43,165 nt of DNA from an uncultured Candidatus Saccharibacteria bacterium. Its GTDB lineage: Bacteria > Patescibacteriota > Minisyncoccia > JAHIHE01 > DAOWLE01. Below are positions 876 through 42,996 of the stretch, piece after piece. Position 1 is the first letter of the stretch. Each line of letters begins with the position of its first letter. Below the pieces are notes generated by a model, which saw only the letters and a program-made list of their open reading frames with translations, was not told where the DNA came from and searched no databases. The DNA lies in contig CAYSEG010000008.1 in NCBI GenBank assembly GCA_964430135.1, positions 1 through 43,165 on the forward strand. Direction: 5' to 3'. A program made the position numbers and the translations under genes.

Positions 876-963
876 AATTTCAATTTCAGAATTAATTAAA
901 GGTGAAGATTCCGAATTTTACGGTTAGTGATCAATAAGGCAATATCAAAAGTCAAACGTTAAA

Positions 964-1323
964 ATGCAAAATGACAAGTTAAAATTCAAAAATGAATTCA
1001 AGAAAAGGCTTTATAATTTTACTCTCTGTTTAATAGAATTTCTTGATTCTTTACCTAAAGATAATGTTTCAAGAAGAATTGGCGACCAACTATTAAGAAG
1101 CGGGACAAGCATTTTAGGTAATTACATTGAAGGTCAATCAGCCAGTAGTAAGAAAGATTTTACAAATTTCTTTAATACTTCTTTAAAATTAGCTAATGAA
1201 AGTAAATTGTGATTTATTTTACTTCGTGACAGCAAAAGAACCAAGCCTGAAAAAGTAGCTTGGTTCTTGAAAGAATTAGATGAAATCGCTAATATTTTTT
1301 GCTTCGAGCATTCTTACTCTTAG
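964..1323 (+). pseudogene. four-helix-bundle protein with an in-frame TGA at a conserved Trp codon
   Basis: ORF 964..1212 ends ...SKKDFTNFFNTSLKLANESKL*. The same frame continues FILLRDSKRTKPEKVAWFLKELDEIANIF to TAG at 1321-1323, which restores the normal length of about 120 aa for this family. The TGA at 1210-1212 aligns with the ANETxxW Trp (TGG to TGA). TGA is a genuine stop elsewhere in the window (frr, and the ATGA overlap upstream of ftsH). Confidence 0.55.
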
Positions 1324-1389
1324 GGGAAGAAATAATTTTGATTTTTGTATTTTAATTTTTAATTTGAATAATGAAGGGAGGTGAGAAAA

Positions 1390-16703: not shown

Positions 16704-16732
16704 ATAGTTTAATTTTATTCTTTTAAATCCCA

Positions 16733-16873
16733 ATGACCAAATCCCAAATCTCAAGCCCCAAATCCCAATTATTTTTTATTTTCGGCGTTAGCGATCCCTT
16801 GCGGGACTTATTTGGAATTTATGATTTAGAATTTGGTTGGTCATTGGTCATTGGGGTTTGGGATTTTAAACCT
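16733..16873. repeat. family-E palindromic element, copy E1 (left arm flanking the recombinase gene)
   Basis: AAATCCCAATGACCAAATCCC ... cggcgttagcgatcccttgcgggacttatttgg ... TTGGTCATTGGTCATTGGGGTTTGGGATTT. The ends are mutually inverted. The CCAAATCCCAA sub-repeat is duplicated relative to E2. Confidence 0.75.
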
Positions 16874-16927: not shown

Positions 16928-17866
16928 TTATTTCCTTTTCCTCTGTTTTCCATGAAATGCCTGATGGATTTTCTTGAGGTGTTTATCGGTAATATGTGTA
17001 TAGATTTGAGTTGTAGTAATACTAGAATGTCCCATAAGAAGTTGAACCGAGCGAATATCTGCTCCGCCCAAAAGGAGGTCTGTTCCAAAAGCATGCCTTA
17101 ATGAGTGAGGGGTTATTTTTTTGGTAATTCCAGCGCTGGCAGCATATTTTTTAACAATTCTCTGAATACTTCTTGGCGTTAGTCTTAAAGAGGCAGTCTT
17201 ACTGGTTTTTACCGTTTTGATAAATAAAGCAGGATCAGTATCTGTTCGTTTTTCTAAGTATTTTTTGAGAGCTTCTTGAGACTCTTTTGATAAAAAAACA
17301 ATTCGCATTTTGTCTCCTTTGCCTCGAATACTGAATTCTCCTTTTTTTAAATTAATTGTTTCCCGATTTAAAGCTGTTAATTCCGAAACTCTAAGCCCGG
17401 TTGAAAAAAGCAATTCCAGAATAGCTTTATCTCTGAGTATCTGAAGATTTTCTTTATGACGCGGCTTTAATTTTTCTTTAAGAGGAGCCTCAAGAAGTTT
17501 TTCTAATTCTCTTTCTTCTAAAAATTCAATTTCGTGTTCAGGGGTTTTTCCTAATTCTACTTTTTCAGCGGCCAGGCTTTTGATGTCTATTTTTGATAAA
17601 TATTTTAAAAAACCCCTTAGAGCAATAATATGGTAATTTTGGGTAATTCTTTTTAATTTTCTGTTTTTTTCATCATGCCAGCGGTTTAAATATAGTCTGT
17701 AGTCTCTGACTTTCTTTTCTGTAATTTGCGAAGGTTTGTTTATTTTAGCCCACAAGACAAATCGTCTTAAATAATGATCATAGTTTTCAATAGTTTTTTG
17801 ACTTCGGTTTTTCTCAATTTCAAGATACTGGAGGTAGTCGGTGATAAGGGAGTTGATGGGGTTCAT
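16928..17866 (-). CDS. XerC/XerD-family tyrosine site-specific recombinase
   Basis: N-terminal core-binding region (LEIEKNRSQKTIENYDHYLRRF). C-terminal catalytic region with R (GLRVSEL), HSLRHAFGT and LLMGHSSITTTQIYTH (the Tyr nucleophile). Confidence 0.85.
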   Translation of the reverse strand: MNPINSLITDYLQYLEIEKNRSQKTIENYDHYLRRFVLWAKINKPSQITEKKVRDYRLYLNRWHDEKNRKLKRITQNYHIIALRGFLKYLSKIDIKSLAAEKVELGKTPEHEIEFLEERELEKLLEAPLKEKLKPRHKENLQILRDKAILELLFSTGLRVSELTALNRETINLKKGEFSIRGKGDKMRIVFLSKESQEALKKYLEKRTDTDPALFIKTVKTSKTASLRLTPRSIQRIVKKYAASAGITKKITPHSLRHAFGTDLLLGGADIRSVQLLMGHSSITTTQIYTHITDKHLKKIHQAFHGKQRKRK

Positions 17867-17924
17867 ATGGTTTTAATTGATTATATTATGAGTTAACTTT
17901 AGCAAATCTCCTACTTAAAGTTAA

Positions 17925-18047
17925 AAATCTTAAACCCCAGTGACCAATGATCAACCAAATCTTAAATCATAAATTCTAAATAAGTCCCGCAAGGGATCGC
18001 TAACGCCGAAAATAAAAAATAATTGGGATTTGGTCATTGGAATTTTA
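17925..18047. repeat. family-E palindromic element, copy E2 (right arm, inverted relative to E1)
   Basis: Its reverse complement aligns with E1 at about 95% identity over roughly 120 bp, through ...aattattttttattttcggcgttagcgatcccttgcgggacttattt. Confidence 0.75.
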
Positions 18048-18502: not shown

Positions 18503-18637
18503 TGTCATTGCGGCGAGGGGGCTTTAACCCCGAAGCAATCCCATAGGAAAGGATAAGATTTTCATATAAGAAAAAATATAATAATGTATTTATAAGGAAA
18601 TTGCCTCGTCGTCCTTCGGATTCTTTACAATAATGAC
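18503..18637. repeat. family-A palindromic element (copy A2) immediately after the rpsO stop
   Basis: TGTCATTGCGGCGAGGGGGCtttaaCCCCgaagcAATCCC ... GGATTctttacaataATGAC. Same modules as A1 and A3, but a longer AT-rich central loop. Confidence 0.55.
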
Positions 18638-19188: not shown

Positions 19189-19296
19189 ATTTGTTGGTTT
19201 ATATTTATTGGTTTAATCGTCCCGATTGAACCATAAGTTTAGTTTTCTTGGTAATCAAAACATTAAGGTTCAGTCGTGGACGACTGAACCAACGGA
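19189..19296. repeat. family-B double-hairpin element (copy B2)
   Basis: TTGTTGGTTtatatttattGGTTTAATCGtcccGATTGAACC ... aatcaaaacattaa GGTTCAGTCGtggaCGACTGAACCAACGG. Confidence 0.7.
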
Positions 19297-19398
19297 AGGT
19301 CCTGAGTTTATTTCAGAATTTAGCACGACAAATTAGTTTTTGATTATTTCGTATAAGCAATTCAAAGTAACAATAATTTTTTTCATTAATCGTTATCT

Positions 19399-19474: not shown

Positions 19475-21622
19475 ATGAAAGAAGAAAATTCTATTTCAGA
19501 AAATCAGGAGGGAAAAACTGAAAAAAAATTTACCGCTGAGATAGACGGTAAAAAATTAATTATTGAGATTGGAAAATTAGCCAATTTTGCTAATGGTGCG
19601 GTTACTGTTCGGTACGGAGACACGGTAGTTTTAGCTACGGCAGTGATGAGTAAAAATAAGCGGGAAGGAATTGACTATCTTCCTTTATTGGTGGATTACG
19701 AAGAGAGAGTCTACGCTGCCGGGAAAATTAAGGGCAGCCGTTTTATCAAGAGAGACGGACGGCCAACCGACAGGGCGGTCGTGAGCGGCCGAGTGATTGA
19801 TCGGGTTATCCGTCCTCTTTTTAACAGTCGAATAAGAAATGATATTCAGGTAGTCGTCACTGTTCTTTCGGTGGACCAGGAAAATGATCCTGTTATCTGC
19901 GCCGTTTTGGGAGCTTCGTTGGCATTGGGTATTTCCGATATTCCCTGGAACGGTCCAGCGGGAGCGGTGGAAATAGCTAAAATAAAAGATCAGTTAAAAA
20001 TTAACGCCGTCTATAAAGAACGAGAGGAGGCGGAATTTGACCTTATTGTCGCTGGCGTCGAAGATAAAATTAATATGATTGAAGGAGAAGGTCAAGAAGC
20101 GGAAGAAAAGGATGTTATAGAAGGAATAAAATTAAGCCAGCGATACATTAAGGAGTTGGTTGATTTTCAAAAAAGAATCATCAGAGAAGTCGGATTACCA
20201 AAAATCCAGCCTATTTTAGTAGAAGTTTCCGAGGAAGTAAAAAAAACAATCAGGAAATTTTTAGCCGATAAATTAAAAGCGGCGATTTACGAAACCGATA
20301 AAACAAAACGAATTGAGGAAGAAAGAAAACTGAAAGAATCTTTAGAAAATTACCTTAAAGAAAAATACCCCGAGGATTTTAAGGAAAAAGGATATAACGA
20401 AGCAGCGGAGATAATAATGGACGAAGAAATTGATAGGGTCGTCCACGAGGGCATTATTAAAGAAAATCGTCGCCCTGACGGCCGGAAAATGGACGAAGTA
20501 AGATCTCTTTCCGCCGAAGTGGGAGTTTTGCCTCGCACTCACGGAACGGGGCTTTTCAATCGCGGCGAGACGCAGGTTCTATCTGTTTTGACGCTTGGCG
20601 CGCCGGGCGACGAACAATTGCTTGACAGTATGGAAGAAAATGGAGTGAAGCGATTTATGCATCATTATACTTTTCCAGGATTTTCGGTTGGCGAGGTAAG
20701 GCCGATGAGAGGTCCTAGCCGTCGCGATATCGGTCACGGTAATCTAGCGGAAAGGGCGCTGGAAAAACTTATACCCGACAAAGAGGATTTTCCTTATACT
20801 ATCAGATTGGTTTCGGAAGTTCTTTCTTCTAACGGCTCTTCTTCTATGGCGAGTGTTTGCGGCAGTAGTTTAGCTTTGATGGACGGCGGTGTCCCTATTC
20901 CCCGTGCAGTGGCGGGAATTGCAATGGGTTTAATGATTGATGAAAAGGATGGTAGTTATAAAATTCTGACCGACATTCAGGGTCCTGAGGACCATCACGG
21001 TGATATGGATCTCAAAATAGCCGGTACTAGGAAAGGGATTACTGCTCTTCAAATGGATGTTAAAATTAAGGGTGTTACTTTGGAAATTTTAAGGGAGGCA
21101 TTTGGAGCCGCCCGTCAGGCGCGGTTAAAAATCATTATGGAAATGAACAAAGCGATCAGCGTTTCCCGTAAAGAGCTTTCTGTCTACGCGCCGCGAATTA
21201 CCACTTTAAAAATTAATCCGGAGAAAATTCGTGATGTAATCGGTCCCGGCGGCAAAGTGATAAACGAGATTATTGATCAAACCGGGGTAACAATTGATAT
21301 TGAGGATGATGGACTTGTGATGATTACTTCAAAAGATGCCAAAGCTGCTGAAAAAGCTGTAGATTGGGTTAGAGATTTAACTCATGAAGTAAAGCCGGGA
21401 GAAATTTTTAAAGGTCAAGTGAAGAGAATTATGGATTTTGGGGCTTTTGTAGAGATTTTGCCTGGACAGGAGGGGCTTGTCCATATTTCGGAAATGGCTC
21501 CATGGCGAGTAAATCGAGTTGAAGATATTCTTAAAGTAGGAGAAGTTATTTCGGTAAAAGTAAAGGGGATTGACGAGCAAGGGAGAATCAATTTAACTTT
21601 AAAAGGGATAAATAATAAATAA
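19475..21622 (+). CDS. pnp: polyribonucleotide nucleotidyltransferase (PNPase)
   Basis: Two RNase PH domains, then KH (IRDVIGPGGKVINEI) and S1 (GEIFKGQVKRIMDFGAFVEI) domains. ATG at 19475 with an AGGAAGGA SD. The upstream extension to 19340 runs through the leader hairpin and is not supported. Confidence 0.95.
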   Translation: MKEENSISENQEGKTEKKFTAEIDGKKLIIEIGKLANFANGAVTVRYGDTVVLATAVMSKNKREGIDYLPLLVDYEERVYAAGKIKGSRFIKRDGRPTDRAVVSGRVIDRVIRPLFNSRIRNDIQVVVTVLSVDQENDPVICAVLGASLALGISDIPWNGPAGAVEIAKIKDQLKINAVYKEREEAEFDLIVAGVEDKINMIEGEGQEAEEKDVIEGIKLSQRYIKELVDFQKRIIREVGLPKIQPILVEVSEEVKKTIRKFLADKLKAAIYETDKTKRIEEERKLKESLENYLKEKYPEDFKEKGYNEAAEIIMDEEIDRVVHEGIIKENRRPDGRKMDEVRSLSAEVGVLPRTHGTGLFNRGETQVLSVLTLGAPGDEQLLDSMEENGVKRFMHHYTFPGFSVGEVRPMRGPSRRDIGHGNLAERALEKLIPDKEDFPYTIRLVSEVLSSNGSSSMASVCGSSLALMDGGVPIPRAVAGIAMGLMIDEKDGSYKILTDIQGPEDHHGDMDLKIAGTRKGITALQMDVKIKGVTLEILREAFGAARQARLKIIMEMNKAISVSRKELSVYAPRITTLKINPEKIRDVIGPGGKVINEIIDQTGVTIDIEDDGLVMITSKDAKAAEKAVDWVRDLTHEVKPGEIFKGQVKRIMDFGAFVEILPGQEGLVHISEMAPWRVNRVEDILKVGEVISVKVKGIDEQGRINLTLKGINNK

Positions 21623-21724
21623 GTTCAAAGTTTAAAAGCGAAAAGGTAAAAATATTTCAGGGTAAAACCCAAAAAGATCTTGATTTTTTATTCGACATTG
21701 TAGACTTTCGCCTTTTGAATTGTC

Positions 21725-22885
21725 TTGTTTTTGCTTTTTACATTTTTAATTTTGAATTTTATTCATATGAGAACATTTGAACAAAATGAACAAAATAAAG
21801 ATATTTTAGAAAAATCAAGAATAAGAACAATGTCAAAAGATTTGAAAGAGATTCAGACAATAAAAAAAGTTCCTTCAGAAAAAAAAGAGCCTGAAAAAGA
21901 GAAAACTACTACAGAAGAAAAAATAAAAGAGGAAGTTCCGAAAGAAGAGATTTCAAAAAAAGAAGAAACTATAAAAGCGGCAGAGCCGACTAAATTTATT
22001 GAACATATAACTCCTCCTGAGAAAAAAAGCGAAAGAGAGTTATCGCCTCAAGAACGTTTAGCTTATGGAGTAGAGTTTAGAAGACCAAAGCCGGTAGAAA
22101 AACCGCCTTCCGCCGAAACTTCAAAGTCTGCCCCGGTTAAAGTTTCAAAGCGGCCGTCGATTTTTGAGTTTCTTAAGAGGGCGCCAAAACATCCAGAGCT
22201 TTCTAAATTAAATGCTTTAGTAAAATCAAAAAAGTTTTTGGCTTTGATTATTCTTGTTTTCGCTATTAGTATAGGTTCTTTTCTCTATTATAGATATTAT
22301 TATTCGCCTCCGCTTCCGTCTTCTCCTGTTATTCCTGAACCTGCGGCAATTATTCCGATAGAAAATAAAATCGTTATTAATTATTCTGAAGGAGAAAATC
22401 TTTTAGCGAAAGTTGAAACTAAGCTTCGGAGAATGTCAAATCTGCCCGAAATTTCCCGATTGAATATTAAAAATCAAAATGGTTATTATTTAGATTTAAA
22501 AGATATCACTGAAAAATTAAATATTAAAATACCCGAAGAATTGGCGGCAAATATAAAAGATTATAATTTACTCGTTTTTTCTTTAAAGGATGAGGGATTA
22601 AGATTAGGATTAGTTTTTGAAGTAGCTGATATAAAATTGGCTGAAAGTTACACAAGAAGCTGGGAGCGCAAAATGAAGGTTAATTTAAGAACTCTTTTCC
22701 TACATTCTTATGTGAAAACACCGGCTAGATTAAATTTTCAAAATGGTGTTTATCAAAATGTATCTATTCGTTATCTTAATTTACCTAATCCTTTTGTAAG
22801 CATAGATTACGCTTTTGTTGGCAATAAATTAATTATTACCACTTCTAAAGCAAGTATATATAAGATTATTGACATTATAAAATGA
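21725..22885 (+). CDS. hypothetical membrane-anchored protein (K/E-rich N-terminus, one TM helix, C-terminal domain of unknown function)
   Basis: ORF whose TGA overlaps the ftsH ATG (ATGA). No recognisable motif. The true start is probably the ATG at 21767 or later. Confidence 0.4.
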
Positions 22886-25352: not shown

Positions 25353-25429
25353 GGGGCCATTAGCTCAGTTGGTTAGAGCGCGATCCTTATAAGGTCGATG
25401 TCCCTGGTTCGAGTCCAGGATGGCCCACC
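25353..25429 (+). tRNA. tRNA-Ile with a UAU anticodon
   Basis: GGGCCAT/ATGGCCC acceptor. D-arm TAGCTCAGTTGGTTAGAGC, typical of bacterial tRNA-Ile. Anticodon stem CGATC/GGTCG with loop CTTATAA. T-arm CCTGG-TTCGAGT-CCAGG. CCA is encoded. Confidence 0.8.
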
Positions 25430-25470
25430 AAAGGTTCCGCACATAAATTATATGCGGAACTAAATTCAAA

Positions 25471-28137: not shown

Positions 28138-28300
28138 TATTTTCTAGCTTAAAAAATCATATTTCTAATAATTGTCTTTAAAATAGGAATTATTTATTTA
28201 TTTTCATCAATTCTTAGAAATAAAAGGTTAGTGAAATTTAAAATTAAGAAATAGAAATTAAATAAAAATTAAAAAATAAGAAATAAGAATTTTTTATAAT

Positions 28301-28858
28301 ATGTATCAGGAAATTATTGATAAAATTAAACCCGAATTAGAAAAATCGATCGAGCATCTAAAAGAAACGTTAGCTAAACTTCGGACCGGGAGAGCAACTC
28401 CAGTATTAGTTGAGGACATTTTAGTTAATTATTATAATTCAAGAGTTCCCCTAAAACAAATTGCAACTATTTCTATACCTGATGCAAGAACTATCGTAAT
28501 TCAACCGTGGGATAAAGGAATAATTAAGGATATTGAAAAAGCGATTTCGTCTTCTGGTACTGGGCTAAATCCAGTTATCAACGGAACTAAAATTCATATT
28601 AATTTGTCTCCTTTAACTGAAGAAACCAGAAAAGATTTAGTGAAAATACTCCATAAAGAAATAGAAAAAACAAGAGTTAATGTCCGGATGATTCGGGAAA
28701 ACGCTTGGCGCCAGATAAAGAATTTAGAAAAAGAAGGTAGTATTTCAGAAGATGATAAATTTCAAGGAAAGGATAAATTACAAGAAGTGATAAATGAGTT
28801 TAATAATAGAATAGAGAAAATAGGAGAGGATAAGGAAAAGGAGATAATGACGATTTGA
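28301..28858 (+). CDS. frr: ribosome recycling factor
   Basis: 185 aa. LRTGRATPVLVEDILVNYYNSRVPLKQIATISIPDARTIVIQPWDK. Ends with TGA. Confidence 0.9.
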   Translation: MYQEIIDKIKPELEKSIEHLKETLAKLRTGRATPVLVEDILVNYYNSRVPLKQIATISIPDARTIVIQPWDKGIIKDIEKAISSSGTGLNPVINGTKIHINLSPLTEETRKDLVKILHKEIEKTRVNVRMIRENAWRQIKNLEKEGSISEDDKFQGKDKLQEVINEFNNRIEKIGEDKEKEIMTI

Positions 28859-28972
28859 AAAAAGTCAAAAGTCAAAAATCAAAATTCAAAAATAAAAGTT
28901 AAAATTCAAAAGTGATTATAAAAATTTTGACTTTTGAATTGAACTTTTGCTTTTGCCTTTTACCTTTTGAAT
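28858..28972. repeat. family-D 7-bp-periodic A-rich imperfect palindrome (copy D1)
   Basis: AAGTCAA|AAGTCAA|AAATCAA|AATTCAA|AAATAAA|AGTTAAA|ATTCAAA - central loop - TTTTGAC|TTTTGAA|TTGAACT|TTTGCTT|TTGCCTT|TTACCTT|TTGAATT. Confidence 0.65.
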
Positions 28973-28981
28973 TAAATATAT

Positions 28982-30091
28982 ATGTTAATCACGATTATTA
29001 TTTTTATTCTAATCTTGGGTCTTCTAATTTTTGTCCACGAATTTGGGCATTTTATTGCGGCTAAACGTGCCGGGGCAAAAGTAGAAGAATTTGGACTTGG
29101 TCTTCCGCCAAGAATTTTTGGTGTAAAAAGAGGCGAGACAATCTATTCATTAAATTGGCTTCCTATTGGCGGATTTTGTAAAATTTTAGGCGAGGGAGGC
29201 GAGAAGAAAAACGACCCTCGGAGTATGGCTTCTAAATCAATCGGACAGCGAGCAAAAATATTTGCCGCGGGCGTGTCAATGAATTTTGCCTTAGCTGTTG
29301 TGCTTTTGATAATAGGTTATACCATTGGGCTTCCATCGATTATTAAAGATGATCAAGTAGGGACTGTTAGAGATCCGAAAGTTCAGATAGTTGAAGTGGT
29401 AAAAGATTCACCAGCCGAAAAAGCTGGGTTAAAAGTAGGCGATGCCATAATAGAGTTAAAAGTTAAAAGTGAAAAGTTAAAAGTTGATGAGGTTGAAAAA
29501 TTTCAGGAATTAATCAAAGCGCATCAAGGTAAAGAAGTTATTTTGGGAATTAAAAGAGGAGATGAAGAGTTGGAAATTGCCGCTGTGCCAAGAGAAAATT
29601 TTCCAGAAGGTCAAGGTCCTTTGGGAATTGGATTAGCCGAGACTGGCATTGTTTCTTATCCAATTCACAAAGCTATTTGGATGGGGATTACCAGTACCAT
29701 TAATTTAACCATAACAATCATTTTTCTTTTTGGAGGTCTTCTTTGGAGTCTGATTTCTACTGGCACGGGAAACATAGATGTGGCCGGACCAGTTGGCATT
29801 GCTGTTTTAACCGGACAGGTAGCCCAGATGGGCTTTATCTATGTTTTGCAGTTTACCGCGCTTATTTCTATTAATCTTGCCCTGATTAATATTTTCCCAT
29901 TTCCGGGATTAGACGGGGGTCATCTTTTGTTTTTGGCTATTGAAAAGATAAAAGGAAGACCAGTCAGGCGAGAGGTTTTGAATACTATCAACAACATCGG
30001 TTTTATTCTTTTGATGCTTTTGATTTTAGCAGTTACTTTTAGAGATTTTGCCAGGTTTGATGTTTGGGAGAAGCTGAAGGGAATTTTTTGA
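28982..30091 (+). CDS. rseP: RIP zinc metalloprotease RseP (site-2 protease)
   Basis: HEFGHF, a PDZ domain (KDSPAEKAGLKVGDAI) and the C-terminal PFPGLDGGHLLF motif. Confidence 0.85.
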   Translation: MLITIIIFILILGLLIFVHEFGHFIAAKRAGAKVEEFGLGLPPRIFGVKRGETIYSLNWLPIGGFCKILGEGGEKKNDPRSMASKSIGQRAKIFAAGVSMNFALAVVLLIIGYTIGLPSIIKDDQVGTVRDPKVQIVEVVKDSPAEKAGLKVGDAIIELKVKSEKLKVDEVEKFQELIKAHQGKEVILGIKRGDEELEIAAVPRENFPEGQGPLGIGLAETGIVSYPIHKAIWMGITSTINLTITIIFLFGGLLWSLISTGTGNIDVAGPVGIAVLTGQVAQMGFIYVLQFTALISINLALINIFPFPGLDGGHLLFLAIEKIKGRPVRREVLNTINNIGFILLMLLILAVTFRDFARFDVWEKLKGIF

Positions 30092-30195
30092 AGTTAAAGG
30101 TTTAAGATGCAAAGTTTAAAATTACAGTTAGAAGTTTAAAATTTATTCCCTCTCTTGGGAGGGATTAGGGGGATGTGTAGATTGAAAATATTTCT

Positions 30196-30308
30196 GTCAG
30201 TTCAGTCGTCCATTCTGTTAGTTCAATCGTTCACGATTGAGCTACGTGTTTAGTTTTTAGCAATCAAAACATTAAGGTTTAGTCGTGGACGACTAAACCA
30301 ACAGAGGA
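30196..30308. repeat. family-B double-hairpin element (copy B3), abutting the truncated Fic gene
   Basis: cagttcagtcgtcc (partial hairpin), GTTAGTTCAATCGttcaCGATTGAGCTAC, spacer gtttagtttttagcaatcaaaacattaa, then GGTTTAGTCGtggaCGACTAAACCAACAG. Confidence 0.7.
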
Positions 30309-31064
30309 ATGTTTTATTTAAGCTAAAAATTGACGAAAAGACCAAGAAAATAAATTCTTTACGGCCTTTGCCGAAGGAATCATTAAAATCTTTAGAGGAA
30401 AAACTTGCTATTGACGAGATTTATAATTCTACGGCCATTAAAGGGAATACTTTGACCTTAGGCGAAACTGCTTTGGTTATAGAAAAAGGAATAACAGTTT
30501 CTGGAAAGCCTCTTAAAGATCATCTTGAAGTTTTGGGCTATAATAATGCTTTGAAATTCTTAAAAGATATTGTCAAAGAAAAAGAAAAATATCCCTTGAA
30601 CGAGGATTTAATTAAAGAAATTCATAGAATTTATTTAAGCCAATAGAGGATATTGGAAAGGAATATAAAACCGGAATTGGATTTTACAGAGGAAATCAAA
30701 GATTTATTAAAAGTTCCCGCCATATTTTGCCGCGTCCAGAAAAGGTTCTGCATCTAATGGAGGAATTTGTAAAAATTATCAATACTTTTGATATACATTC
30801 AATTAAACGAGCCGCCTTGTTTCATTTTGGTTTAACTCATATCCATCCTTTTTCGACGGTAATGGCAGAACCGTACGGATTCTGATGAATTTAATGCTTT
30901 TAAGAAATAATTTTACGATTGCCGTTATTCCAGTTGAAAGAAGGTCCAACTATATTAATTCTTTGGAAAAAGCATCAGTAGAGCACGACGGCAGTGATTT
31001 TCTGAAATTCATTGTTGTTTGTCTTGATGATGTTTTAAATTTATATTTTACGATTGTGAGATGA
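30309..31064 (+). pseudogene. Fic/Doc-family (AMPylase-like) gene, 5'-truncated and interrupted by at least two frameshifts
   Basis: The reading frame runs through the B3 element with no start codon. The N-terminal region has STAIKGNTLTLGE. The frame breaks after IHRIYLSQ (30646) and again inside HPF|FDGNGRTVRILMNLMLL (a T5 run near 30855), which is the Fic HxFx(D/E)GNGRxxR motif. Confidence 0.6.
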
Positions 31065-31134
31065 TAAATAATTCAGAAATAAAAAAGTTCCAAGTTTTAA
31101 ATTCCAAATTGTAAGTTATAAATTTCAAGATTTT

Positions 31135-32838: not shown

Positions 32839-32847
32839 ATAGATATA

Positions 32848-32962
32848 AAATTTTCAATTACCAATTTTCAATTTCCAAAGTGTTTTATTTAGTTTTTTGT
32901 TTGAAAATTTAATTATTGAAAATTCATTGAAAATTGTGATTTAAAAATTGAAAATTAAATTG
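32848..32962. repeat. family-C TTTTCAAT/ATTGAAAA element (copy C2)
   Basis: aattttcaattaccaattttcaatttccaa ... tttttgtttgaaaatttaattattgaaaattcattgaaaattgtgatttaaaaattgaaaatt. Near-identical blocks occur in C3. Confidence 0.65.
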
Positions 32963-35085: not shown

Positions 35086-35213
35086 TATCATTGCGGGGAG
35101 CCCCTTAAGGGGCGATGAAGTAATCCCGTGCTATTAATACAGGCTTTTTATAAATCTACGGGATTGTTTCATCGTCCTGAAGCATATAGTTCAGGATTTC
35201 TCGCAACAACGGA
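35086..35213. repeat. family-A palindromic element (copy A3) between mreC and mreD
   Basis: TCATTGCGGGGA-GCCCCttaaGGGGC-GATGAAGTAATCCCGT ... ACGGGATTGTTTCATC ... TTCTCGCAACAA. Nested inverted repeats, GC-rich. It ends 3 nt before the mreD ATG. Confidence 0.65.
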
Positions 35214-35216
35214 TTT

Positions 35217-35729
35217 ATGAAGATTAGTTTAAATATTTTAATTTTGTTCTTAACTGTTATCTTACAGGTTACTCTTGTGCCTCATTTAAGTATTTTTGGA
35301 GTTTACCCTGATTTTGTATTTATCTTGATTATCTTTTTTAGTATTTTAAAACCCATCCATCAATCATTAATTTTTGCATTAGTCGGCGGATTATTTCTAG
35401 ATTTTTTTACTTTATACCCTTTAGGTGCTATTACATTAAGTTTTATTTTAATTTCGTATCTTTTTAGTTTTGTTGTTCAAAATATTCTAAAAAGCCATAA
35501 TTTAGCAACATTTATAATTCTTGGTTTTATCGGAACAATAATTTACGAAATATTAGTATCTTCTTTTATAAAATTGGCTGATTTTATTTATTCATCTAGT
35601 AAAATTCTTGAATTTCGATATAATTTTATTTATTTTATATTACCAGAAGCAGTTTATAATACTATTTTGATTTTCCTTGTTTTTTTATTCTTTCGGTGCT
35701 TCAAGCAACGTTTATTAGCATATAAATAA
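35217..35729 (+). CDS. mreD: rod-shape-determining protein MreD (putative)
   Basis: 170 aa with 5 TM helices, positioned between mreC and the PBP2 gene. Confidence 0.55.
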   Translation: MKISLNILILFLTVILQVTLVPHLSIFGVYPDFVFILIIFFSILKPIHQSLIFALVGGLFLDFFTLYPLGAITLSFILISYLFSFVVQNILKSHNLATFIILGFIGTIIYEILVSSFIKLADFIYSSSKILEFRYNFIYFILPEAVYNTILIFLVFLFFRCFKQRLLAYK

Positions 35730-37660
35730 TGAGCTTATTTTTTTCTTTAAATAATTCAAACAAATATCGTCTCAAGAGATCATTTAAAAAAGATATTGAA
35801 CCAGAAGAAGTTTTTTTAGATTCTCCTTTTGAAGACGCCCCTCGTCTAAAATATCTTCATGCTCAGAGATATTTTATTGCATTGGGACGAATTCTAATTT
35901 TGCTTCTGATTATTCTTATTGTCAGAATAGGGTGGCTCCAAATTGCTAAGGGGGATTATTATCGGGAAATAGCCCAAGCAAACCGTATTCGCACTTGTCC
36001 TATAAGGGCAGATCGAGGAATTATTTATGATAGGAATGGAGTGCCCTTAGTTAAAAATATACCCGCTTTTGATTTAGTTATTATTCCTTCTAAATTACCA
36101 AAAGACGAGATTCATCTTCGTATTTTGACTAATATCATTTCTTCGGTAATTGGCCAGCAACGAGAAGAAATAGAAAGAATAATAAAAGAAGCCGATCATT
36201 CTTCATCAGATCCAATTTTAATAAAAAGAAATCTTGACAGACAAAAAGCACTTATTTTAAAAACTAAAACTGTTGGTTTTGAAGAAGTGAGAGTAGAAAT
36301 AAATGCCATGCGGGATTATTTTGATGGTGTCATTTTTTCTCATATTATTGGATATACTGGCAAAATCAATGAGCAAGAATTGAGAGATTATCCATCTTAT
36401 AATCTTACTGATTATATTGGGAAGGTTGGGATAGAAAAGACTTACGAAAAAACTCTTCGGGGTAATTACGGGAGCGAGGAGTTTGAAATTGATTCTTTAG
36501 GAAGAATTCAGCGAGTTATAAACAAAAAAGAAGCCGAGCCCGGCTTAAATCTTGTTCTTTCAATTGACAGTGCTCTTCAGAATAAACTTTATGAAATTTT
36601 AGAAAAACAACTCCAAGTTCTTAAAGTAAAAGGAGCTGCTGGGATAGCTGTTGATCCCCGAAATGGAAAGGTTTTAGCCTTGGTGAGTTTGCCAAGTTTT
36701 GACAATAATCTTTTTGCCGAAGGAATTTCCGAGAAAGATTTTAAAGCCTTGTTAAACAATCCAGCTCATCCTTTTCTAAACCGCGTCATTAGCAGCCAAT
36801 ACCCACCCGGTTCAACAATTAAACCGATTATTGCCAGCGCTGCTCTCGAGGAAAATATTATCAGCAGTTCTGAAAAAATTAATTGTCAAGGCAGGTTAGT
36901 TATACCAAATCCATACTGGCCGGACAAGCCTTCAGTTTTTTTAGATTGGAAAGTTCATGGTCCGACAAATATTACAAAAGCCATTGCTGAGTCCTGTAAC
37001 GTATTTTTTTATACTGTTGGCGGAGGATTCGGCAAAATAAAAGGTTTAGGAATAGAAAGAATTAAAAAATACTTCCATCTTTTTGGACTGGGAGAAACTC
37101 TTGGTATTGATCTTACAGGTGAGGCGCCAGGATTGGTTCCCGATATAGAATGGAAGAAGAAAAATAAGCATGGTGAACCTTGGCGTTTAGGAGATACATA
37201 TCATACTTCAATCGGTCAGGGAGACACTACCGCTACCCCGCTTCAAATCGCTATGGCGACGGCGGTTGTTGCTAATGGCGGAACATTATTCCAACCGCAG
37301 ATAGTTGATAAAATTATTAATTCCGAAAAGGAATTAGTTAAAGATATTGAGCCTAAAATAATCAGAAAAGATTTTATTGACCCAAAGAATCTTCAAGTTG
37401 TCCAAAAGGGAATGCGAGAAGCGGTGATTTATGGTTCTTCTCGGAGAATGTCCAATTTGCCGGTGAAAGCAGCTGGGAAAACCGGCACAGCTCAATTTGG
37501 AAAAAATAAAGAAACTCATGCTTGGTTTACTTGTTATGCTCCTTATGAATCGCCGGAAATTGTTCTGACTATTTTAATTGAGGGCGGCGGCGAGGGGCAT
37601 GCCGGGGCTTTGCCGGTGGCAAAGGAGGTGCTAGAATGGTATTTTAGCAATAAAAATTAG
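35729..37660 (+). CDS. mrdA: penicillin-binding protein 2 (elongasome transpeptidase)
   Basis: N-terminal TM helix and dimerisation domain, then transpeptidase motifs STIKP (SxxK), SCN (SxN) and KTGTA (KTG). Confidence 0.9.
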   Translation: MSLFFSLNNSNKYRLKRSFKKDIEPEEVFLDSPFEDAPRLKYLHAQRYFIALGRILILLLIILIVRIGWLQIAKGDYYREIAQANRIRTCPIRADRGIIYDRNGVPLVKNIPAFDLVIIPSKLPKDEIHLRILTNIISSVIGQQREEIERIIKEADHSSSDPILIKRNLDRQKALILKTKTVGFEEVRVEINAMRDYFDGVIFSHIIGYTGKINEQELRDYPSYNLTDYIGKVGIEKTYEKTLRGNYGSEEFEIDSLGRIQRVINKKEAEPGLNLVLSIDSALQNKLYEILEKQLQVLKVKGAAGIAVDPRNGKVLALVSLPSFDNNLFAEGISEKDFKALLNNPAHPFLNRVISSQYPPGSTIKPIIASAALEENIISSSEKINCQGRLVIPNPYWPDKPSVFLDWKVHGPTNITKAIAESCNVFFYTVGGGFGKIKGLGIERIKKYFHLFGLGETLGIDLTGEAPGLVPDIEWKKKNKHGEPWRLGDTYHTSIGQGDTTATPLQIAMATAVVANGGTLFQPQIVDKIINSEKELVKDIEPKIIRKDFIDPKNLQVVQKGMREAVIYGSSRRMSNLPVKAAGKTGTAQFGKNKETHAWFTCYAPYESPEIVLTILIEGGGEGHAGALPVAKEVLEWYFSNKN

Positions 37661-37690: not shown

Positions 37691-37804
37691 GAAAAAGTCA
37701 AAAATCAAAATTCAAAACTAAAAGTCAAAAATCAAAAGTGAATTATTTGAAACTTTTAACTTTTAACTTGAACTTTTAGCTTTTGAATTTTGCATTTTGA
37801 ATTT
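37691..37804. repeat. family-D 7-bp-periodic A-rich imperfect palindrome (copy D2)
   Basis: AAAGTCA|AAAATCA|AAATTCA|AAACTAA|AAGTCAA|AAATCAA - loop - TTTTAAC|TTTTAAC|TTGAACT|TTTAGCT|TTTGAAT|TTTGCAT|TTTGAAT. Confidence 0.65.
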
Positions 37805-37807
37805 GTT

Positions 37808-38266
37808 ATGAAAAATTTTATTACCAAAGAAGGACTTAAAAAATTAAAAGAAGAATTAAATATTCTTAAAAGAAAAAAACGTCAAGAGATAGCCAAACGT
37901 ATTGGTGAGGCAAAAGAAATGGGGGATTTATCTGAAAACGCCGAATATGCCGAAGCAAAAGAAGCGCAATCTCTTAATGAACAGCAGATTGCTGAATTAG
38001 AGCAAACGATCAGAGAGACTGCTCTGATTGATGAGACAAGAAATAAGACTACTATTGTGCAAATAGGATCAACAGTTACCGTGAAAAATAATGATCAAAC
38101 TAAATGTTTTACTATTGTTGGTTCAAGTGAAGCAAATCCCTCTCAAGGAAAAGTATCTAACGAATCTCCGTTGGGGGCAGCTTTTTTAAACCATAAAATA
38201 GGGGATGATATTGAAGTAAAAACTCCGGGAGGAACAGTAAAATATAAAATAATAAAAATTGAATAA
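37808..38266 (+). CDS. greA: transcription elongation factor GreA
   Basis: MKNFITKEGLKKLKEELNILKRKKRQEIAKRIGEAKEMGDLSENAEYAEAKEAQ, then the C-terminal FKBP-like domain. The ORF-track start at 37790 lies inside repeat D2. Confidence 0.9.
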   Translation: MKNFITKEGLKKLKEELNILKRKKRQEIAKRIGEAKEMGDLSENAEYAEAKEAQSLNEQQIAELEQTIRETALIDETRNKTTIVQIGSTVTVKNNDQTKCFTIVGSSEANPSQGKVSNESPLGAAFLNHKIGDDIEVKTPGGTVKYKIIKIE

Positions 38267-38292: not shown

Positions 38293-40008
38293 ATGAGCTT
38301 AACGGTTATTTTTATAATTTTATCTTTTTTATGGTTTTTACGGACAATTAGAGCCGCGCTTTTTAATGTTTGGATTTGGCAAATTAAAGAATATCGGCTT
38401 GACAGAATGTGGGCTCACTTGAGTATTTTAAGTGGCAAGAGATTATTTCTTAATTGGTTAAATATTATTAAATTAGGACTTCTTGTTCTCTTTCCGTTGT
38501 TTTTACTTCTAAGGCCGTTTCTTTTTTTAGGGTTAGTTATTATTCTCTTTTCTTTAGAATCATTTTTAGGATTCAAAGAATTTCTGGATAAACGATTTTA
38601 TCGGCCGAAATTTACTCCTAAGGCGACGATAATTTTGGCTGGAACTGTTGGAATTGAAATCATTATTGTTTTTTTCTTGACTTATATTTTATTTGAAGGA
38701 GCGTTCTTTGGGTTGAGATTTACTTTATTATCTATAGGTAATTTAAATGAAGTTATACAATATACTTCTATTAGCTGTTTTTCTTTTTTATTTCTAATAT
38801 TGAGTGTTGTTCTGCCGTTAATTGTTTTTCTTTTGGTATTAGTTCTTAACCCGATAACAAAATTATTTAAAGCGAGAACGATTAAAAAAGCAAAAAAGAA
38901 AATAAAGAAATTTTCGAATCTTATTGTAATTGGAATTACTGGAAGCTATGGCAAAACTTCAACAAAAGAATTTTTAGCAACAATTCTAGCTGAGCGTTTT
39001 AATGTTTTAAAAACAATTAAAGCCAATACTGATATTGGCGTGGCGAAAACTATTCTTGAAAAATTAAAACCAGAACATCAAATTTTTGTTGTGGAAATGG
39101 GAGCTTATAAGCGAGGGGAAATTAAGGCAATTTGCGATATTGTAAAGCCGAAGATTGGAGTTTTAACCGGAATCAATGAACAACATTTGGCACTTTTTGG
39201 AGGGTTGGAGAATACGATAAGAGCGAAATTTGAGCTGATTGAGGCGTTGCCGGAAGATGGGTTGGGGGTAATAAACAAAAAGTTAAAAGTTTCCGCCTTC
39301 GTCCCTGCTGGGACTACGACGGACAAGCAAAATTCAAAGTTCAAAGTTGCAGTTAAAAGTTTAAAGTTTTTTTCTGGTAGCGAAAAATCAGATATTTATG
39401 CGAGTGATATAATAATTGAAAAAGATAAAATCAAATTTAAAGTGATAAACGGCGAGGAGAGCGAGGATTTTGAAGTTAGTTTAATCGGCAAGCAGAATGT
39501 TTCAAATATCTTGGCTTGTGTGGCTGTGGCTGAATATTTAGGAATGACTTTAAAAGAAATTTCTAAGGCAGCGAAGAAAATTAAGCCGATTGAGAAAACA
39601 ATGAAAGCTTATCAAGGAATTAATGGAATAACCTTGATTGATGATACTTATAATGCTAATCCGGCCGGTGTTTTGGCGGCTTTGGATTATTTGAAAATTT
39701 GGAAGGGCAGAAAAGCGATTGTGATGCCCTGTTTGATTGAGCTGGGAAGTACGTCAAAGGATGTTCATCAGAGAATCGGCGCGAAAATCGGCGAGAACTG
39801 CGATTTGGCGATTATTACCAAGAAAGAGTGTTATGAAGATATTAAAAAAGCCGCTTGCGAGAACGGGATGGATAAACAGAATATTTTGCTTTCGCAGGAC
39901 CCGCGGGAAATTTTTGAAAAATTAAAAAATTTTAACAAGCCCGAAGATGTGATATTATTAGAAAGCAGGGTTCCTCAGCAATTGATTGATATGTTGGAAT
40001 TTGAATAA
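38293..40008 (+). CDS. murF: MurF-type Mur ligase fused to an N-terminal polytopic membrane domain of about 200 aa
   Basis: Residues 1-200 contain 5-6 TM helices. They are followed by IVIGITGSYGKTSTKEFLATIL (Mur ligase P-loop), GVLTGINEQHLALFGGLENTIRAKFELIE and LIDDTYNANPAGVLAALDYL (MurF C-terminal domain). Confidence 0.75.
   Translation: MSLTVIFIILSFLWFLRTIRAALFNVWIWQIKEYRLDRMWAHLSILSGKRLFLNWLNIIKLGLLVLFPLFLLLRPFLFLGLVIILFSLESFLGFKEFLDKRFYRPKFTPKATIILAGTVGIEIIIVFFLTYILFEGAFFGLRFTLLSIGNLNEVIQYTSISCFSFLFLILSVVLPLIVFLLVLVLNPITKLFKARTIKKAKKKIKKFSNLIVIGITGSYGKTSTKEFLATILAERFNVLKTIKANTDIGVAKTILEKLKPEHQIFVVEMGAYKRGEIKAICDIVKPKIGVLTGINEQHLALFGGLENTIRAKFELIEALPEDGLGVINKKLKVSAFVPAGTTTDKQNSKFKVAVKSLKFFSGSEKSDIYASDIIIEKDKIKFKVINGEESEDFEVSLIGKQNVSNILACVAVAEYLGMTLKEISKAAKKIKPIEKTMKAYQGINGITLIDDTYNANPAGVLAALDYLKIWKGRKAIVMPCLIELGSTSKDVHQRIGAKIGENCDLAIITKKECYEDIKKAACENGMDKQNILLSQDPREIFEKLKNFNKPEDVILLESRVPQQLIDMLEFE
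39278..39372. repeat. heptamer-flanked GC-core palindromic element inserted in frame in murF
   Basis: AAAAGTT|AAAAGTT-tccgccttcGTCCCtgctGGGACtacgacggacaagc-AAAATTC|AAAGTTC|AAAGTTG|CAGTTAA|AAGTTTA|AAGTTTT. It encodes KKLKVSAFVPAGTTTDKQNSKFKVAVKSLKFF. The core resembles the family-E core atCCCTTGCGGGACt. Confidence 0.55.
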
Positions 40009-41801: not shown

Positions 41802-41805
41802 TGAA

Positions 41806-41948
41806 TAATTTTCGATTACCAATTTTCAATTTTCAACCAAACTCCAAATTCCAATTTTCAAATTGTTAATTTTATATCAGTTATTTTTTTGTTTGAAAAT
41901 TGATTCATTGAAAATTCATTAAAAATTGGGATTTGAAAATTGAAAAAT
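41806..41948. repeat. family-C TTTTCAAT/ATTGAAAA element (copy C3)
   Basis: aattttcgattaccaattttcaattttcaacc ... tttttgtttgaaaattgattcattgaaaattcattaaaaattgggatttgaaaattgaaaaatt. It ends at the femAB ATG. Confidence 0.65.
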
Positions 41949-41949
41949 T

Positions 41950-42996
41950 ATGCTGATAAAAGAAATTAAAAACAAAGATTACTGGGAAAACTTTCTTTTA
42001 TCCCAGCCAGAACCGTCTTTCCTACAATCCTGGTATTGGGGCAAGTTCCACGAATCGCTCGGCGATAAAATTTTTCGCTTGGGAATTTTTGACAACGAAG
42101 AAATTGTCGGCGCGGCTTTGATAATTAGAGTTTTGGCGCGGCGAGGATCATTCCTTTTTTGCCCTTATGGACCAATAATAAGTCAAAAGTCAAAAGTCAA
42201 AAGTCAAAAGCGTAATTCAAAATGCAGAAGTATTGAGATTTTGACAAATTATTTGAAAGATTTAGCGAGAAAAGAAAAGTGCTGTTTTCTTAGAATTAGT
42301 CCGAATTGGGAGAGAAGCGAGAAGGATATAAAAATTTTCAAGGATTTAGGATTTAGGGATGCGCCGATTCATCTTAAGCCGGAAATAACTTGGCTTTTGG
42401 ATATTAGACCGAGCGAAGATGAAATTTTGATGGGAATGCGAAAAACTACTCGGAATTTAATCAGAAGAGGATATAAAGAAAATATCCAGATTATTAAAAG
42501 CGAAAATCCGGATGATTTGGGCGAATTTTATGAAATTTATCAGAAAACCGCTAAACGGCAAAATTTTGTTCCGTTCTCCAAAGAATATTTAAAAAAAGAA
42601 TTTAGTGTTTTTGTTGGAGAAAAAAAAGTCAGTTTATTTTTCGCCAAGCATAAAGATAAACTACTGGCAGCTTCTTTTTTTATTTTTTATGGACGTCAAG
42701 GTTTTTATCATCATAGCGCTTCTTTGCCGAATACTTCTAAAATTTCAACTTCTTATCTTTTACTTTGGAAAGCAATTCAGGAAGCGAAGAAAAGAAATTG
42801 CGAAATTTTCAATTTTTGGGGTATTGCCCCGAAAAATAAACCAAAGCATCCTTGGCAAGGTTTAACTTTTTTTAAAAAAGGTTTTGGCGGTTATCAAAAA
42901 GATTTAATTCATGCCCAAGATTTGCCAATGGATAGGCGATATTGGTTAAATTGGGTGGTTGAAACTTTCCGAAGAATTAAACGAGGATATTCATAA
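41950..42996 (+). CDS. FemAB-family peptidoglycan interpeptide-bridge aminoacyltransferase
   Basis: SFLQSWYWGKF ... FLFCPYGPI ... and C-terminal ...FFKKGFGG matches the FemAB-family (PF02388) architecture as I recall it; this family is commonly annotated in CPR bacteria. Confidence 0.75.
   Translation: MLIKEIKNKDYWENFLLSQPEPSFLQSWYWGKFHESLGDKIFRLGIFDNEEIVGAALIIRVLARRGSFLFCPYGPIISQKSKVKSQKRNSKCRSIEILTNYLKDLARKEKCCFLRISPNWERSEKDIKIFKDLGFRDAPIHLKPEITWLLDIRPSEDEILMGMRKTTRNLIRRGYKENIQIIKSENPDDLGEFYEIYQKTAKRQNFVPFSKEYLKKEFSVFVGEKKVSLFFAKHKDKLLAASFFIFYGRQGFYHHSASLPNTSKISTSYLLLWKAIQEAKKRNCEIFNFWGIAPKNKPKHPWQGLTFFKKGFGGYQKDLIHAQDLPMDRRYWLNWVVETFRRIKRGYS
42178..42245. repeat. in-frame (AGTCAAA)4 heptamer array with a partner arm inside femAB
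   Basis: aagtcaaaagtcaaaagtcaaaagtcaaaag ... attgagattttgac, encoding SQKSKVKSQKRNSKCRSIEILT. Same unit as the family-D intergenic repeats. Confidence 0.55.

Follow-up and report, generated by a model that had tools for sequence, protein, structure and literature searches.

Contig CAYSEG010000008.1 (assembly GCA_964430135.1) of an uncultured Candidatus Saccharibacteria bacterium, analyzed over positions 1 to 43,165 of the forward strand (the whole stretch of 43,165 nt, hereafter the window), carries two imperfect palindromes of about 115 nt that are built from units of approximately 7 nt. The first, E1 (28859-28973), occupies the spacer between frr and rseP, and the second, E2 (37692-37805), the spacer between mrdA, which encodes PBP2, and greA. 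What are these palindromes, and how did they come to lie between housekeeping genes? An initial annotation of this DNA had offered three possibilities: protein-binding arrays, transcription attenuators and mobile palindromes. The best explanation as a whole is that E1 and E2 are probably gene-less shells of a small selfish cassette encoding an S23p protein, i.e., derivatives that have lost their open reading frame (ORF) and resemble miniature inverted-repeat transposable elements (MITEs). Their identity as cassette shells, taken alone, is held somewhat more firmly, and is very likely.

Both palindromes share the same layout: A4-5N2-3 units make up an A-rich left arm, and a short AT-rich centre separates it from the T-rich right arm, which is complementary to it. 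The left arm of E1 (28859..28917, + strand) begins 1 nt past the frr stop codon, has eight A-rich units (AAAAGTC, AAAAATC, AAAATTC, one 6-nt AAAAAT and others) and has AATTCAAAAGTGATT at its 3' end. Its right arm (28921..28977, + strand) opens with ATAAAAATTTTGAC, continues with TTTTGAC, TTTTGAA, TTGAAC, TTTTGC, TTTTGCC, TTTTACC and TTTTGAATT, and stops just 5' of the rseP ATG (28982). In E2, the left arm (37692..37744, + strand) has seven A-rich units, among them a 6-nt unit (AAAACT) placed as in E1, and has CAAAAGTGAATT at its 3' end, while the right arm (37750..37806, + strand) is made of T-rich units with TTTTGAATTTG at the end, just 5' of the greA ATG (37808). The stem of each shell reaches from the upstream stop codon to a few nt before the downstream ATG, which has no Shine-Dalgarno sequence. 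The flanking genes frr (28301-28858), rseP (28982-30091, an M50/PDZ RseP), mrdA (35729-37660) and greA (37808-38266) were confirmed by Pfam, with the start of greA taken from genes called in strain contigs, and the positions, gene spacers and arm/loop/arm anatomy described in the initial annotation were found to be right. Either strand of E1 and E2 folds into a long imperfect hairpin (free energy −27 to −34 kcal/mol, z −3.8 to −5.5), with none of 200 shuffled sequences folding as well. The E1 hairpin has a free energy of −27.2 kcal/mol (z −4.6) and that of E2 −28.9 (+ strand) or −33.9 kcal/mol (− strand), and the stems are AU-rich, imperfect and about 40 bp long.

Period-7 self-similarity is a property of the window that is specific to this period. 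Ten such segments were observed against 0.01–0.04 expected from Markov shuffles (order 1, 3 and 5), while the other periods from 4 to 12 gave zero to two segments each. Nine arrays with four or more A4/T4 tracts at 6–8-nt spacing were counted, against 0.085 expected. The heptamer phasing, which was to be given up if shuffled sequence of the same composition showed it equally often, is therefore far above chance. It is not strict, as had been claimed, because the arms contain 6-nt units: one in each left arm (AAAAAT and AAAACT) and others in the right arms. The unit spacings of the left arms are 7,7,7,6,7,7 in E1 and 8,7,7,6,7,7 in E2.

Tandem heptamers can arise in place, and an obvious reading is that E1 and E2 are ordinary heptanucleotide simple sequence repeats (SSRs), like the short tandemly repeated repetitive (STRR) sequences of cyanobacteria, which grew by slippage in AT-rich spacers without any cassette ancestry, the palindrome having arisen locally. 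According to the accounts of Mrazek (2007) given in PMC4679880 and PMC4692102, no class of SSR is more over-represented in many bacteria than the heptanucleotide one, an excess that has been attributed to slippage as a proposal. E1 and E2 do have head-to-tail 7-nt units above chance in variable number between strains (as seen in TRF arrays, shuffles and strain indels), the strain differences are exact multiples of 7, and arrays with unrelated units are found in the frr-rseP spacer of relatives. However, E1 and E2 align collinearly with 79% identity and a single 7-nt gap, and have in common the order of unit variants, the displaced 6-nt unit and the centre AAAAGTGA(A)TTAT. Their alignment score (115) exceeds those of each element against its own reverse complement (42–69). 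Since independent arrays would not share order, 6-nt unit and centre, the two were not independently grown.

The source of this common structure was found in other genomes. A metagenome scan with a 21-mer common to both left arms gave matches in more than 120 contigs, in which the elements mostly fill their spacer tightly. Of 93 distinct 21-mer loci, 32 have a complementary T-rich arm (T-arm) no more than 200 nt downstream, and 8 have one upstream. In four contigs (L067, L141, L124 and L108), the A-rich arm (A-arm) leads directly into an ORF that begins ATGCAAAATTATAATTCAAAATTCAAAAGTGATTTAAAA (translated as MQNYNSKFKSDLK...) and closes with ...AAAAACTTTTGA, its stop codon lying inside the first T-unit, after which the T-arm follows. 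The gene of this cassette encodes a four-helix bundle of about 120–124 aa belonging to PF05635, 'S23p / 23S rRNA intervening-sequence protein'. The left arm of the intact cassette takes in the beginning of the gene (its start codon and first ~13 codons) and the right arm its stop codon, so that the arms can pair around the gene. The L067 protein has 1330 homologues, and the best 120 clusters are 72–100% identical to it, some being named Levybacteria or Patescibacteria; the N-terminal peptide MQNYNSKFKSDLK is conserved in more than 100 protein clusters. Three homologues picked by protein similarity alone (P0032, P0060 and P0037) have an A-arm upstream and a T-arm downstream that adjoins the next ATG, in three different contexts: EamA / intervening-sequence protein (IVP) / rpmE, pilin / IVP / pilin, and GT2 / IVP / GT4. 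Together with three genes of a second subfamily (see below), matched arms were present at six of six genes of the Candidate Phyla Radiation (CPR) that were chosen by protein similarity. The 21-mer motif alone is not diagnostic, because few of the 151 loci in a census match the cassette profile (four full cassettes, six shells and 11 partial matches). Most contigs with the 21-mer match the profile no further than the array, and many look non-CPR by their flanking genes.

E1 and E2 correspond to the ends of such a cassette. In a spliced alignment, E1 matches the L067 cassette with 84% identity over 129 nt, interrupted by a single gap of 328 nt, which is the ORF. E2 matches it with 80% identity, and the L141 and L124 cassettes give similar results (range 78–84%). 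An nhmmer profile constructed from six cassettes of other contigs, none being from the window, matched the E1 left arm at profile positions 10-64 (E 3.8e-7) and the right arm at 396-453 (E 6e-6); the corresponding matches for E2 were at 15-65 (E 2.4e-5) and 396-452 (E 5.5e-8). In L067 and L124, the end of the T-arm is almost identical to the right arm of E1. An internal S23p/PF05635 ORF is absent from both palindromes, but they keep sequence that is coding in intact cassettes, namely AATTCAAAAGTGATT (codons ..NSKFKSD) and the 3' end AAAAA(C/T)TTTTGAC with its stop codon. To judge from these matches, the AATTCAAAAGTGATT that closes the E1 left arm appears to be what is left of the first codons of the missing S23p gene, and the ATAAAAATTTTGAC that opens the right arm a likely relic of its 3' end. 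As the arms match the cassette termini with one ORF-sized gap, E1 and E2 are a cassette minus its gene. Growth in place by slippage would have to account for a shared variant order, 6-nt unit and centre, and for the match of both palindromes to the ends of an ORF-bearing cassette with an ORF-sized gap; independent growth would not recreate the terminal codons of an ORF, and neither these relics nor the unit-variant order, both common to cassettes elsewhere, fit an array generated in place. Slippage is accepted as part of the explanation and is rejected only as the origin, for which it is highly improbable. Since E1 and E2 are homologous to each other and to cassettes in other genomes and contexts, they are dispersed derivatives.

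A full-length cassette of the parent type is present in the window itself (944..1369, + strand), between two genes for pilins of the type IV secretion system (T4SS). Its A-arm (945-963, + strand) continues into the ORF, the S23p gene (964-1323, + strand) encodes a PF05635 four-helix bundle (Pfam E 2.7e-10, called in the ORF 964-1212), and the T-arm follows at 1334-1369 (+ strand). The region 944-1363 is a full-length nhmmer match to the six-cassette profile (E 9e-23). The gene is truncated by an in-frame TGA (1210..1212, + strand) that is TGG (Trp) in a closely related strain (strain B, see below), where the gene is intact (119 aa); the mutated residue is the W of a conserved YWLELL motif. The cassette splits a cluster of small T4SS-pilin genes (PF18895/TrbC; 516-2226), and the same order, pilin / S23p / pilin, occurs in a Levybacteria contig (L180).

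A second PF05635 subfamily is represented by a decayed pseudogene at ~130-463, with in-frame stops and AATTTTC/GAAAATT arms, which lies within a full-length match to the subfamily-2 profile (67-533, E 1.5e-97). Its protein has 1132 homologues, and the three examined (P0131, P0132 and P0140) have AATTTTC arrays upstream and GAAAATT arrays downstream. Matches to the arms alone are found at 41795-41946 (DegT / femAB), 32847-32957 (proS / mreB) and 2384-2433 plus 2610-2674, the last two enclosing ~180 nt of unrelated, GC-richer hairpin sequence. The main heptamer palindromes of the window are shells of these two cassette subfamilies. They are the last stage of a decay series that runs from an intact gene (strain B) to a fresh nonsense mutation (964-1323), a riddled pseudogene (67-533) and empty shells (E1, E2 and those of the AATTTTC type).

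The nearest published counterparts are the intervening sequences (IVSs) of rRNA genes. The IVS of Coxiella burnetii 23S rRNA is a 428-nt selfish element with terminal inverted repeats that form a 28-bp stem and an internal S23p ORF; tandem heptamers (GACAGAT) are found just 5' of the ATG, two or three depending on the strain, and RNase III cuts at the first of them (PMC4990558). Reductive evolution is affecting the ORF, which has lost 176 bp in one strain, and the distribution of IVSs is sporadic, suggesting horizontal spread (PMC4990558), which we count as a further likeness. ORFs of the 23S_rRNA_IVP type have also been described inside rRNA insertions of CPR bacteria (PMC11270868). ORF-bearing IVSs (Coxiella burnetii, Leptospira and others) thus share with the present elements a long inverted-repeat stem around an S23p ORF, strain-variable heptamers and ORF decay through both substitution and deletion. 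Terminal inverted repeats enclose E1 and E2 just as the cassette arms flank the ORF, and the number of upstream heptamers varies here by −14 nt (E1), +7 nt (E2) and 14 nt (the subfamily-2 array of L186 and L187). The differences are that the elements lie between protein-coding genes (frr-rseP, mrdA-greA, pilin-pilin) and not in rRNA helices, that their arms are longer (6–8 units each) and almost wholly heptamers, and that E1 and E2 are without an ORF. IVS insertion sites (23S helices h9, h25 and h45, or 16S) were not found, as Rfam detects no rRNA in the window. In every sequence feature that could be compared, the elements nevertheless appear to be S23p cassettes and shells of IVS architecture, which differ in location and, for E1 and E2, in the missing ORF.

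Because IVSs stand in for the tetraloops of existing rRNA helices (PMC4990558), the order of events might be the reverse, with palindromes as pre-existing insertion targets for S23p genes and E1 and E2 as virgin targets, not deletion derivatives. The palindromes of many heptamer types in the same spacer of relatives, and the unrelated ~180 nt enclosed by the arms at 2384-2433 and 2610-2674, would fit such a scheme. Against it, E1 and E2 retain both AATTCAAAAGTGATT and the stop-bearing 3' end, which are coding in intact cassettes, and the N-terminal peptide MQNYNSKFKSDLK is conserved in more than 100 protein clusters. Moreover, decay of the ORF is seen directly, and its partial deletion is documented in Coxiella. 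Insertion into a pre-existing palindrome is accordingly considered unlikely, and loss of the gene from a cassette remains the preferred account of E1 and E2.

Comparison of element positions between strains, as suggested in the initial annotation, was possible with near-identical contigs from several metagenomes that were retrieved by exact-protein look-ups, the window being strain A. The closest genome matches, together with a DUF5654 gene, assign the window to Candidatus Moranbacteria (CPR); its Frr protein shows only 57% identity to the nearest species representative. Strain B is ~99.6% identical to the window, with only four indels in ~14.5 kb. One of these removes exactly 14 nt (two units, TCAAAAATCAAAAT) from the E1 left arm at 28872-28885, and another a single unit, GAATTTT at 28287, from an AT-rich period-7 stretch (28234-28291) just 5' of the frr start. 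Strain C (L101) is ~96% identical and has one additional unit in the E2 left arm, TCAAAAG, inserted at 37705. Two samples with the same subfamily-2 protein (L186 and L187) likewise differ by 14 nt in the upstream array. Strain indels in the arms are exact multiples of 7, and E1 and E2 are in place in all three strains; unit number therefore drifts in steps of 7 with the elements staying put. A further strain difference lies downstream of rseP, where the rseP-proS spacer (30093-31132, 1040 nt, including an ORF at 30368-30646) is replaced in strain B by an unrelated sequence of 805 nt. Heptamer-like arrays are found at the bounds of this island in both versions.

Several observations weigh against a mobile cassette origin of E1 and E2, or against a role for their RNA structure. 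Neither an empty site nor a presence/absence polymorphism was found, as both elements are present alike in strains A, B and C, and sequence inspection revealed no target-site duplication at either. The cassette encodes no recognizable transposase or nuclease, and its mobility is for this reason inferred only from dispersal across contexts and lineages. The nhmmer E-values, being obtained on low-complexity repeats, may be optimistic. RNAalifold predictions for E1 and E2 across the three strains gave two double changes in 36 pairs, both at the base, with pairs mostly invariant, and own arms pair no better than the arms of other copies (self −25.2 versus cross −28.1 kcal/mol). Finally, there is no consistent folding advantage of the sense strand, either in the window or in the spacers of relatives, and so selection on RNA structure is not demonstrated.

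These points also determine how far E1 and E2 resemble other mobile repeats. Like MITEs and REPINs (repetitive extragenic palindromic doublets forming hairpins), they are short hairpin-forming palindromes in several intergenic copies that derive from a gene-bearing element by internal deletion (~328 nt), with both termini kept and with profile matches on the termini only. In contrast to MITEs and REPINs, their arms are tandem arrays of variable unit number, and the parent has no known transposase or REP-associated tyrosine transposase (RAYT), its cargo being a four-helix-bundle protein; nor were a target-site duplication and insertion polymorphism seen. Of the three possibilities originally proposed, mobile palindromes came nearest, by virtue of the homology to dispersed cassettes, although the cargo gene and the link to rRNA IVSs had been missed.

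The proposed course of events is as follows. An internal deletion of ~328 nt would have removed the gene, leaving the two arms and a few terminal codons as a palindrome of ~115 nt, the unit number of which would then drift in 7-nt steps, with replication slippage as the simplest cause. Where the cassette is intact, its stem would sequester the start codon along with the first ~40 nt of the gene. By analogy with IVSs, E1 and E2 would be co-transcribed in the frr-rseP and mrdA-greA mRNAs, and their stems are long enough to be plausible substrates for RNase III. Excision by this enzyme has been shown for IVSs, and by extension it is quite possible, if not the more probable outcome, that RNase III cuts the E1 and E2 stems and so uncouples the flanking cistrons. 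The two palindromes could just as well be nearly neutral leftovers.

Whether such effects are of use to the host is a separate matter. E1 and E2 could be regulatory devices that act as intrinsic terminators or attenuators, or that stop 3' exonucleases, and that were selected because they fix the expression ratios frr:rseP and mrdA:greA. Both lie between co-directional genes with both flanking gene ends close, and the A-rich arm comes first and the U-rich arm last, an order that also prevails in the metagenome loci (T-arm downstream in 32, upstream in 8). Flanking genes were convergent in nine cases and divergent in three. Over its 115 nt, E1 differs by 2 substitutions between strains A and C, which is below the level at nearby four-fold sites (11–15%). 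On the other hand, E2 has 7 substitutions in 114 nt and evolves as fast as neighboring four-fold sites (4–6%), compensatory evolution is lacking, the sister family has the opposite polarity (T-rich arm first), and frr and rseP abut or overlap without a spacer in several relatives. A consensus scan found no terminator at E1 or E2, i.e., no short GC-rich stem-loop with a T-run as in Rho-independent terminators, whereas canonical GC-stem/T-run terminators do follow other genes of the window, ftsH and the Mur ligase gene among them. The earlier proposal of a transcription attenuator has no direct support, there being no canonical terminator or promoter in or at either element. The evidence bearing on selection is mixed, and the elements more probably persist as near-neutral sequence than fulfil an adaptive role. 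That E1 and E2 are devices selected by the host is unlikely, and since this reading concerns present function only, it is compatible with their origin as cassette shells.

The coupling of heptamers to S23p genes is not confined to CPR bacteria. A tblastn search of 72,556 plasmids with the CPR protein gave 31 records, nearly all from cyanobacteria (16 Nostoc, plus Anabaena, Dolichospermum, Aulosira, Planktothrix and others), with some from Bacteroidota and one from Chloroflexota. The plasmid homologues cluster in Nostocales, in which heptamer repeats are well known. At five of the six plasmid genes inspected, inverted heptamer arrays adjoin the PF05635 gene at both ends, the sixth (Bernardetia) being unclear. 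The units are (AATTCGC)x4 upstream and (GCGAATT)x4 downstream in N. punctiforme, (TAATTCG)x4 and (TTACGAA)x4 in N. flagelliforme, AATCCCC with AATCGTA and TACGATT in Planktothrix, ATGAAGG and TCATAAT in Chlorohelix, and TTTTTAC and GTAAAAA in Anabaena cylindrica. Within 170 kb around the five genes there are 12 strong period-7 arrays: eight are no more than 40 nt away from the gene, another two face each other as an inverted pair with no gene between them, and two are solitary. Arrays of period 5, 6, 8, 9 or 10 are absent from the same 170 kb; as these regions were picked for containing the gene, the counts are a lead and not a genome-wide census. Plasmid four-helix-bundle genes were also observed inside defence operons (cas2/cas1; DISARM drmD / BREX pglX methyltransferase; helicase / N6-methylase), on plasmids from Anabaena cylindrica (pANACY.01, L204), Planktothrix (p1, L206/L210) and Chlorohelix (L207/L211).

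Physical coupling of arrays and S23p genes across phyla raises the possibility that the heptads are bound by protein, either a pentameric S23p or an omega-type ribbon-helix-helix protein, as an operator, centromere or recombination site. The omega protein of pSM19035 binds heptad operators, which the contiguous 7-bp direct and inverted units resemble. Avd, a protein of diversity-generating retroelements (DGRs), belongs to the same Pfam family (PF05635, mentioned in PMC10053308). The unit sequences are, however, widely different between cassettes (AAAAGTC, AATTTTC, AATTCGC, AATCCCC, ATGAAGG) despite a merely moderate divergence of the proteins, and the neighborhoods of E1 and E2 contain no candidate DNA-binding gene. 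A protein-binding array, the remaining possibility from the initial annotation, is thus a very unlikely explanation of the two palindromes.

At least some bacterial 7-base tandem repeats are tied to the S23p cassette, and the plasmid loci suggest that classical STRR-type repeats are often cassette arms. Like the heptanucleotide SSRs and STRRs of cyanobacteria and Xanthomonas (Mazel 1990, Mrazek 2007, Rehm 2015), the arrays described here are tandem 7-nt units, mostly intergenic and with some inverted pairs. The two also agree in that arrays hold their place between the same genes as length and sequence change and are under-represented between divergent genes, as described for Xanthomonas and Nostoc (PMC4692102). 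SSRs and STRRs have been described as free-standing repeats of unknown role, while the arrays here belong to a defined cassette or shell, of which they make up both arms. The TAACTGA repeats of marine Beggiatoaceae (MacGregor 2015), also reported in Cyanobacteria and Bacteroidetes (PMC4679880), likewise lie a few nt before start codons that lack a Shine-Dalgarno sequence, but are short direct arrays of one fixed heptamer for which no inverted partner or associated gene was reported. In the literature accessible to the search, which excluded most subscription journals, there was no link of heptamer repeats to S23p genes beyond the Coxiella IVS and nothing on heptamers in CPR bacteria. Rfam 15 detected only tRNAs in the window at the gathering score, and only sub-threshold hairpins of plant microRNA precursors at a relaxed E-value. 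A broader generalization can be offered only tentatively: bacterial heptanucleotide repeats (STRRs and long SSRs) may largely be arms and shells of S23p cassettes, with the rRNA IVS as one niche among mRNA spacers, defence operons and protein loops, and S23p may make, recognize or use the arms.

Four other explanations were considered and set aside. A conserved hairpin in the frr-rseP spacer of relatives was rejected: although heptamer arrays do recur at this place, significant folding is limited to some of the spacers, and many relatives lack the spacer altogether. A phage origin was discarded, the 21-mer having one match in IMG/VR. A cyanobacterial source, prompted by units such as TTGGTCA and CCCCAGT, does not agree with the genes and closest relatives, which are Moranbacteria/CPR. 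The Bacteroidota promoter motif (TTTG / TAnnTTTG), considered on account of similar sequences in the T-arms, is not applicable to a CPR genome.

The initial annotation had also listed derivatives of the palindromes within coding sequences and after pnp. These are real heptamer arrays, but their homology to the cassette is weak or absent. The array after pnp (21621..21763, + strand) has an A-rich part (21623-21655), a larger centre and a T-rich part (21705-21763), and could be a degenerate third member of the E1/E2 family; its nhmmer match is marginal (E 0.06), and membership is not established. In-frame CAAAGTT units in the Mur ligase gene (39327..39373, + strand) gave a weak cassette-arm match on the minus strand (nhmmer E 0.009), and the remaining matches were non-significant. 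In femAB (42180..42210, + strand), an in-frame (AAGTCAA)x4.4 array, with units of the type seen in E1 and E2, encodes SQKSKVKSQK. In rseP (29454..29485, + strand), in-frame AAAAGTT units, of a type related to those of E1 and E2, produce an insertion of 4–5 aa in the PDZ loop. A heptamer-coded insertion of this length occurs at the same RseP position with AAAAGTT units in the window, AAAAGTC in L036 (~5989) and in strain C (L101), and AATTTTC in L028 (~11000), and the resulting loop peptides are wholly different between genomes (ELKVKSEKLKV, VKVKSQKSKVK and EFSIFNLQFSI).

Other repeats were observed in the window. A gene for a XerC/D-like tyrosine recombinase (16928-17866) lies between inverted composite repeats (16725-16872 and 17920-18045), with arms of AAATCCC, AATGACC / GGTCATT, GGGATTT around a GC-rich core hairpin (CGGCGTTAGCGATCCCTTGCGGGAC); the match of this repeat to the subfamily-2 arms is marginal (E 0.035). 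A separate dispersed repeat of ~100 nt is found at three intergenic sites (~2706-2812, ~19208-19297 and ~30197-30307) and has paired GC-rich hairpins, for example GGTTCAGTCGTGGACGACTGAACC ... CGATTGAACC. Members of a short hairpin family, CATTGCGG(C/G)GAG(G/C)CCC..GGGGCGA(A/T)G...AATCCC, follow rpsO (~18505-18545) and mreC (~35088-35130). ARAGORN predicted a tRNA-Ile with anticodon TAT at 25354-25430. Such tRNAs are uncommon in bacteria, where AUA is usually read by a lysidine-modified CAT tRNA.

With these results, an odd repeat becomes a defined element that has a parent, a decay series and a published precedent, the cleavage by RNase III at the heptamers of the Coxiella IVS, and its effect on operon mRNAs is therefore directly testable. 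S23p elements of the IVS type are not specific to rRNA and are common in the spacers of CPR housekeeping operons, where the right arm of the cassette or shell stops just before a start codon that lacks a Shine-Dalgarno sequence. They provide a lead on two puzzles, namely the over-representation of 7-nt repeats in some bacteria and the nature of the widespread genes annotated as 'four helix bundle protein' (PF05635). Assembly, binning and annotation of CPR genomes also have to reckon with the strain-variable indels and hypervariable protein loops that the shells, and their in-frame relatives, create.

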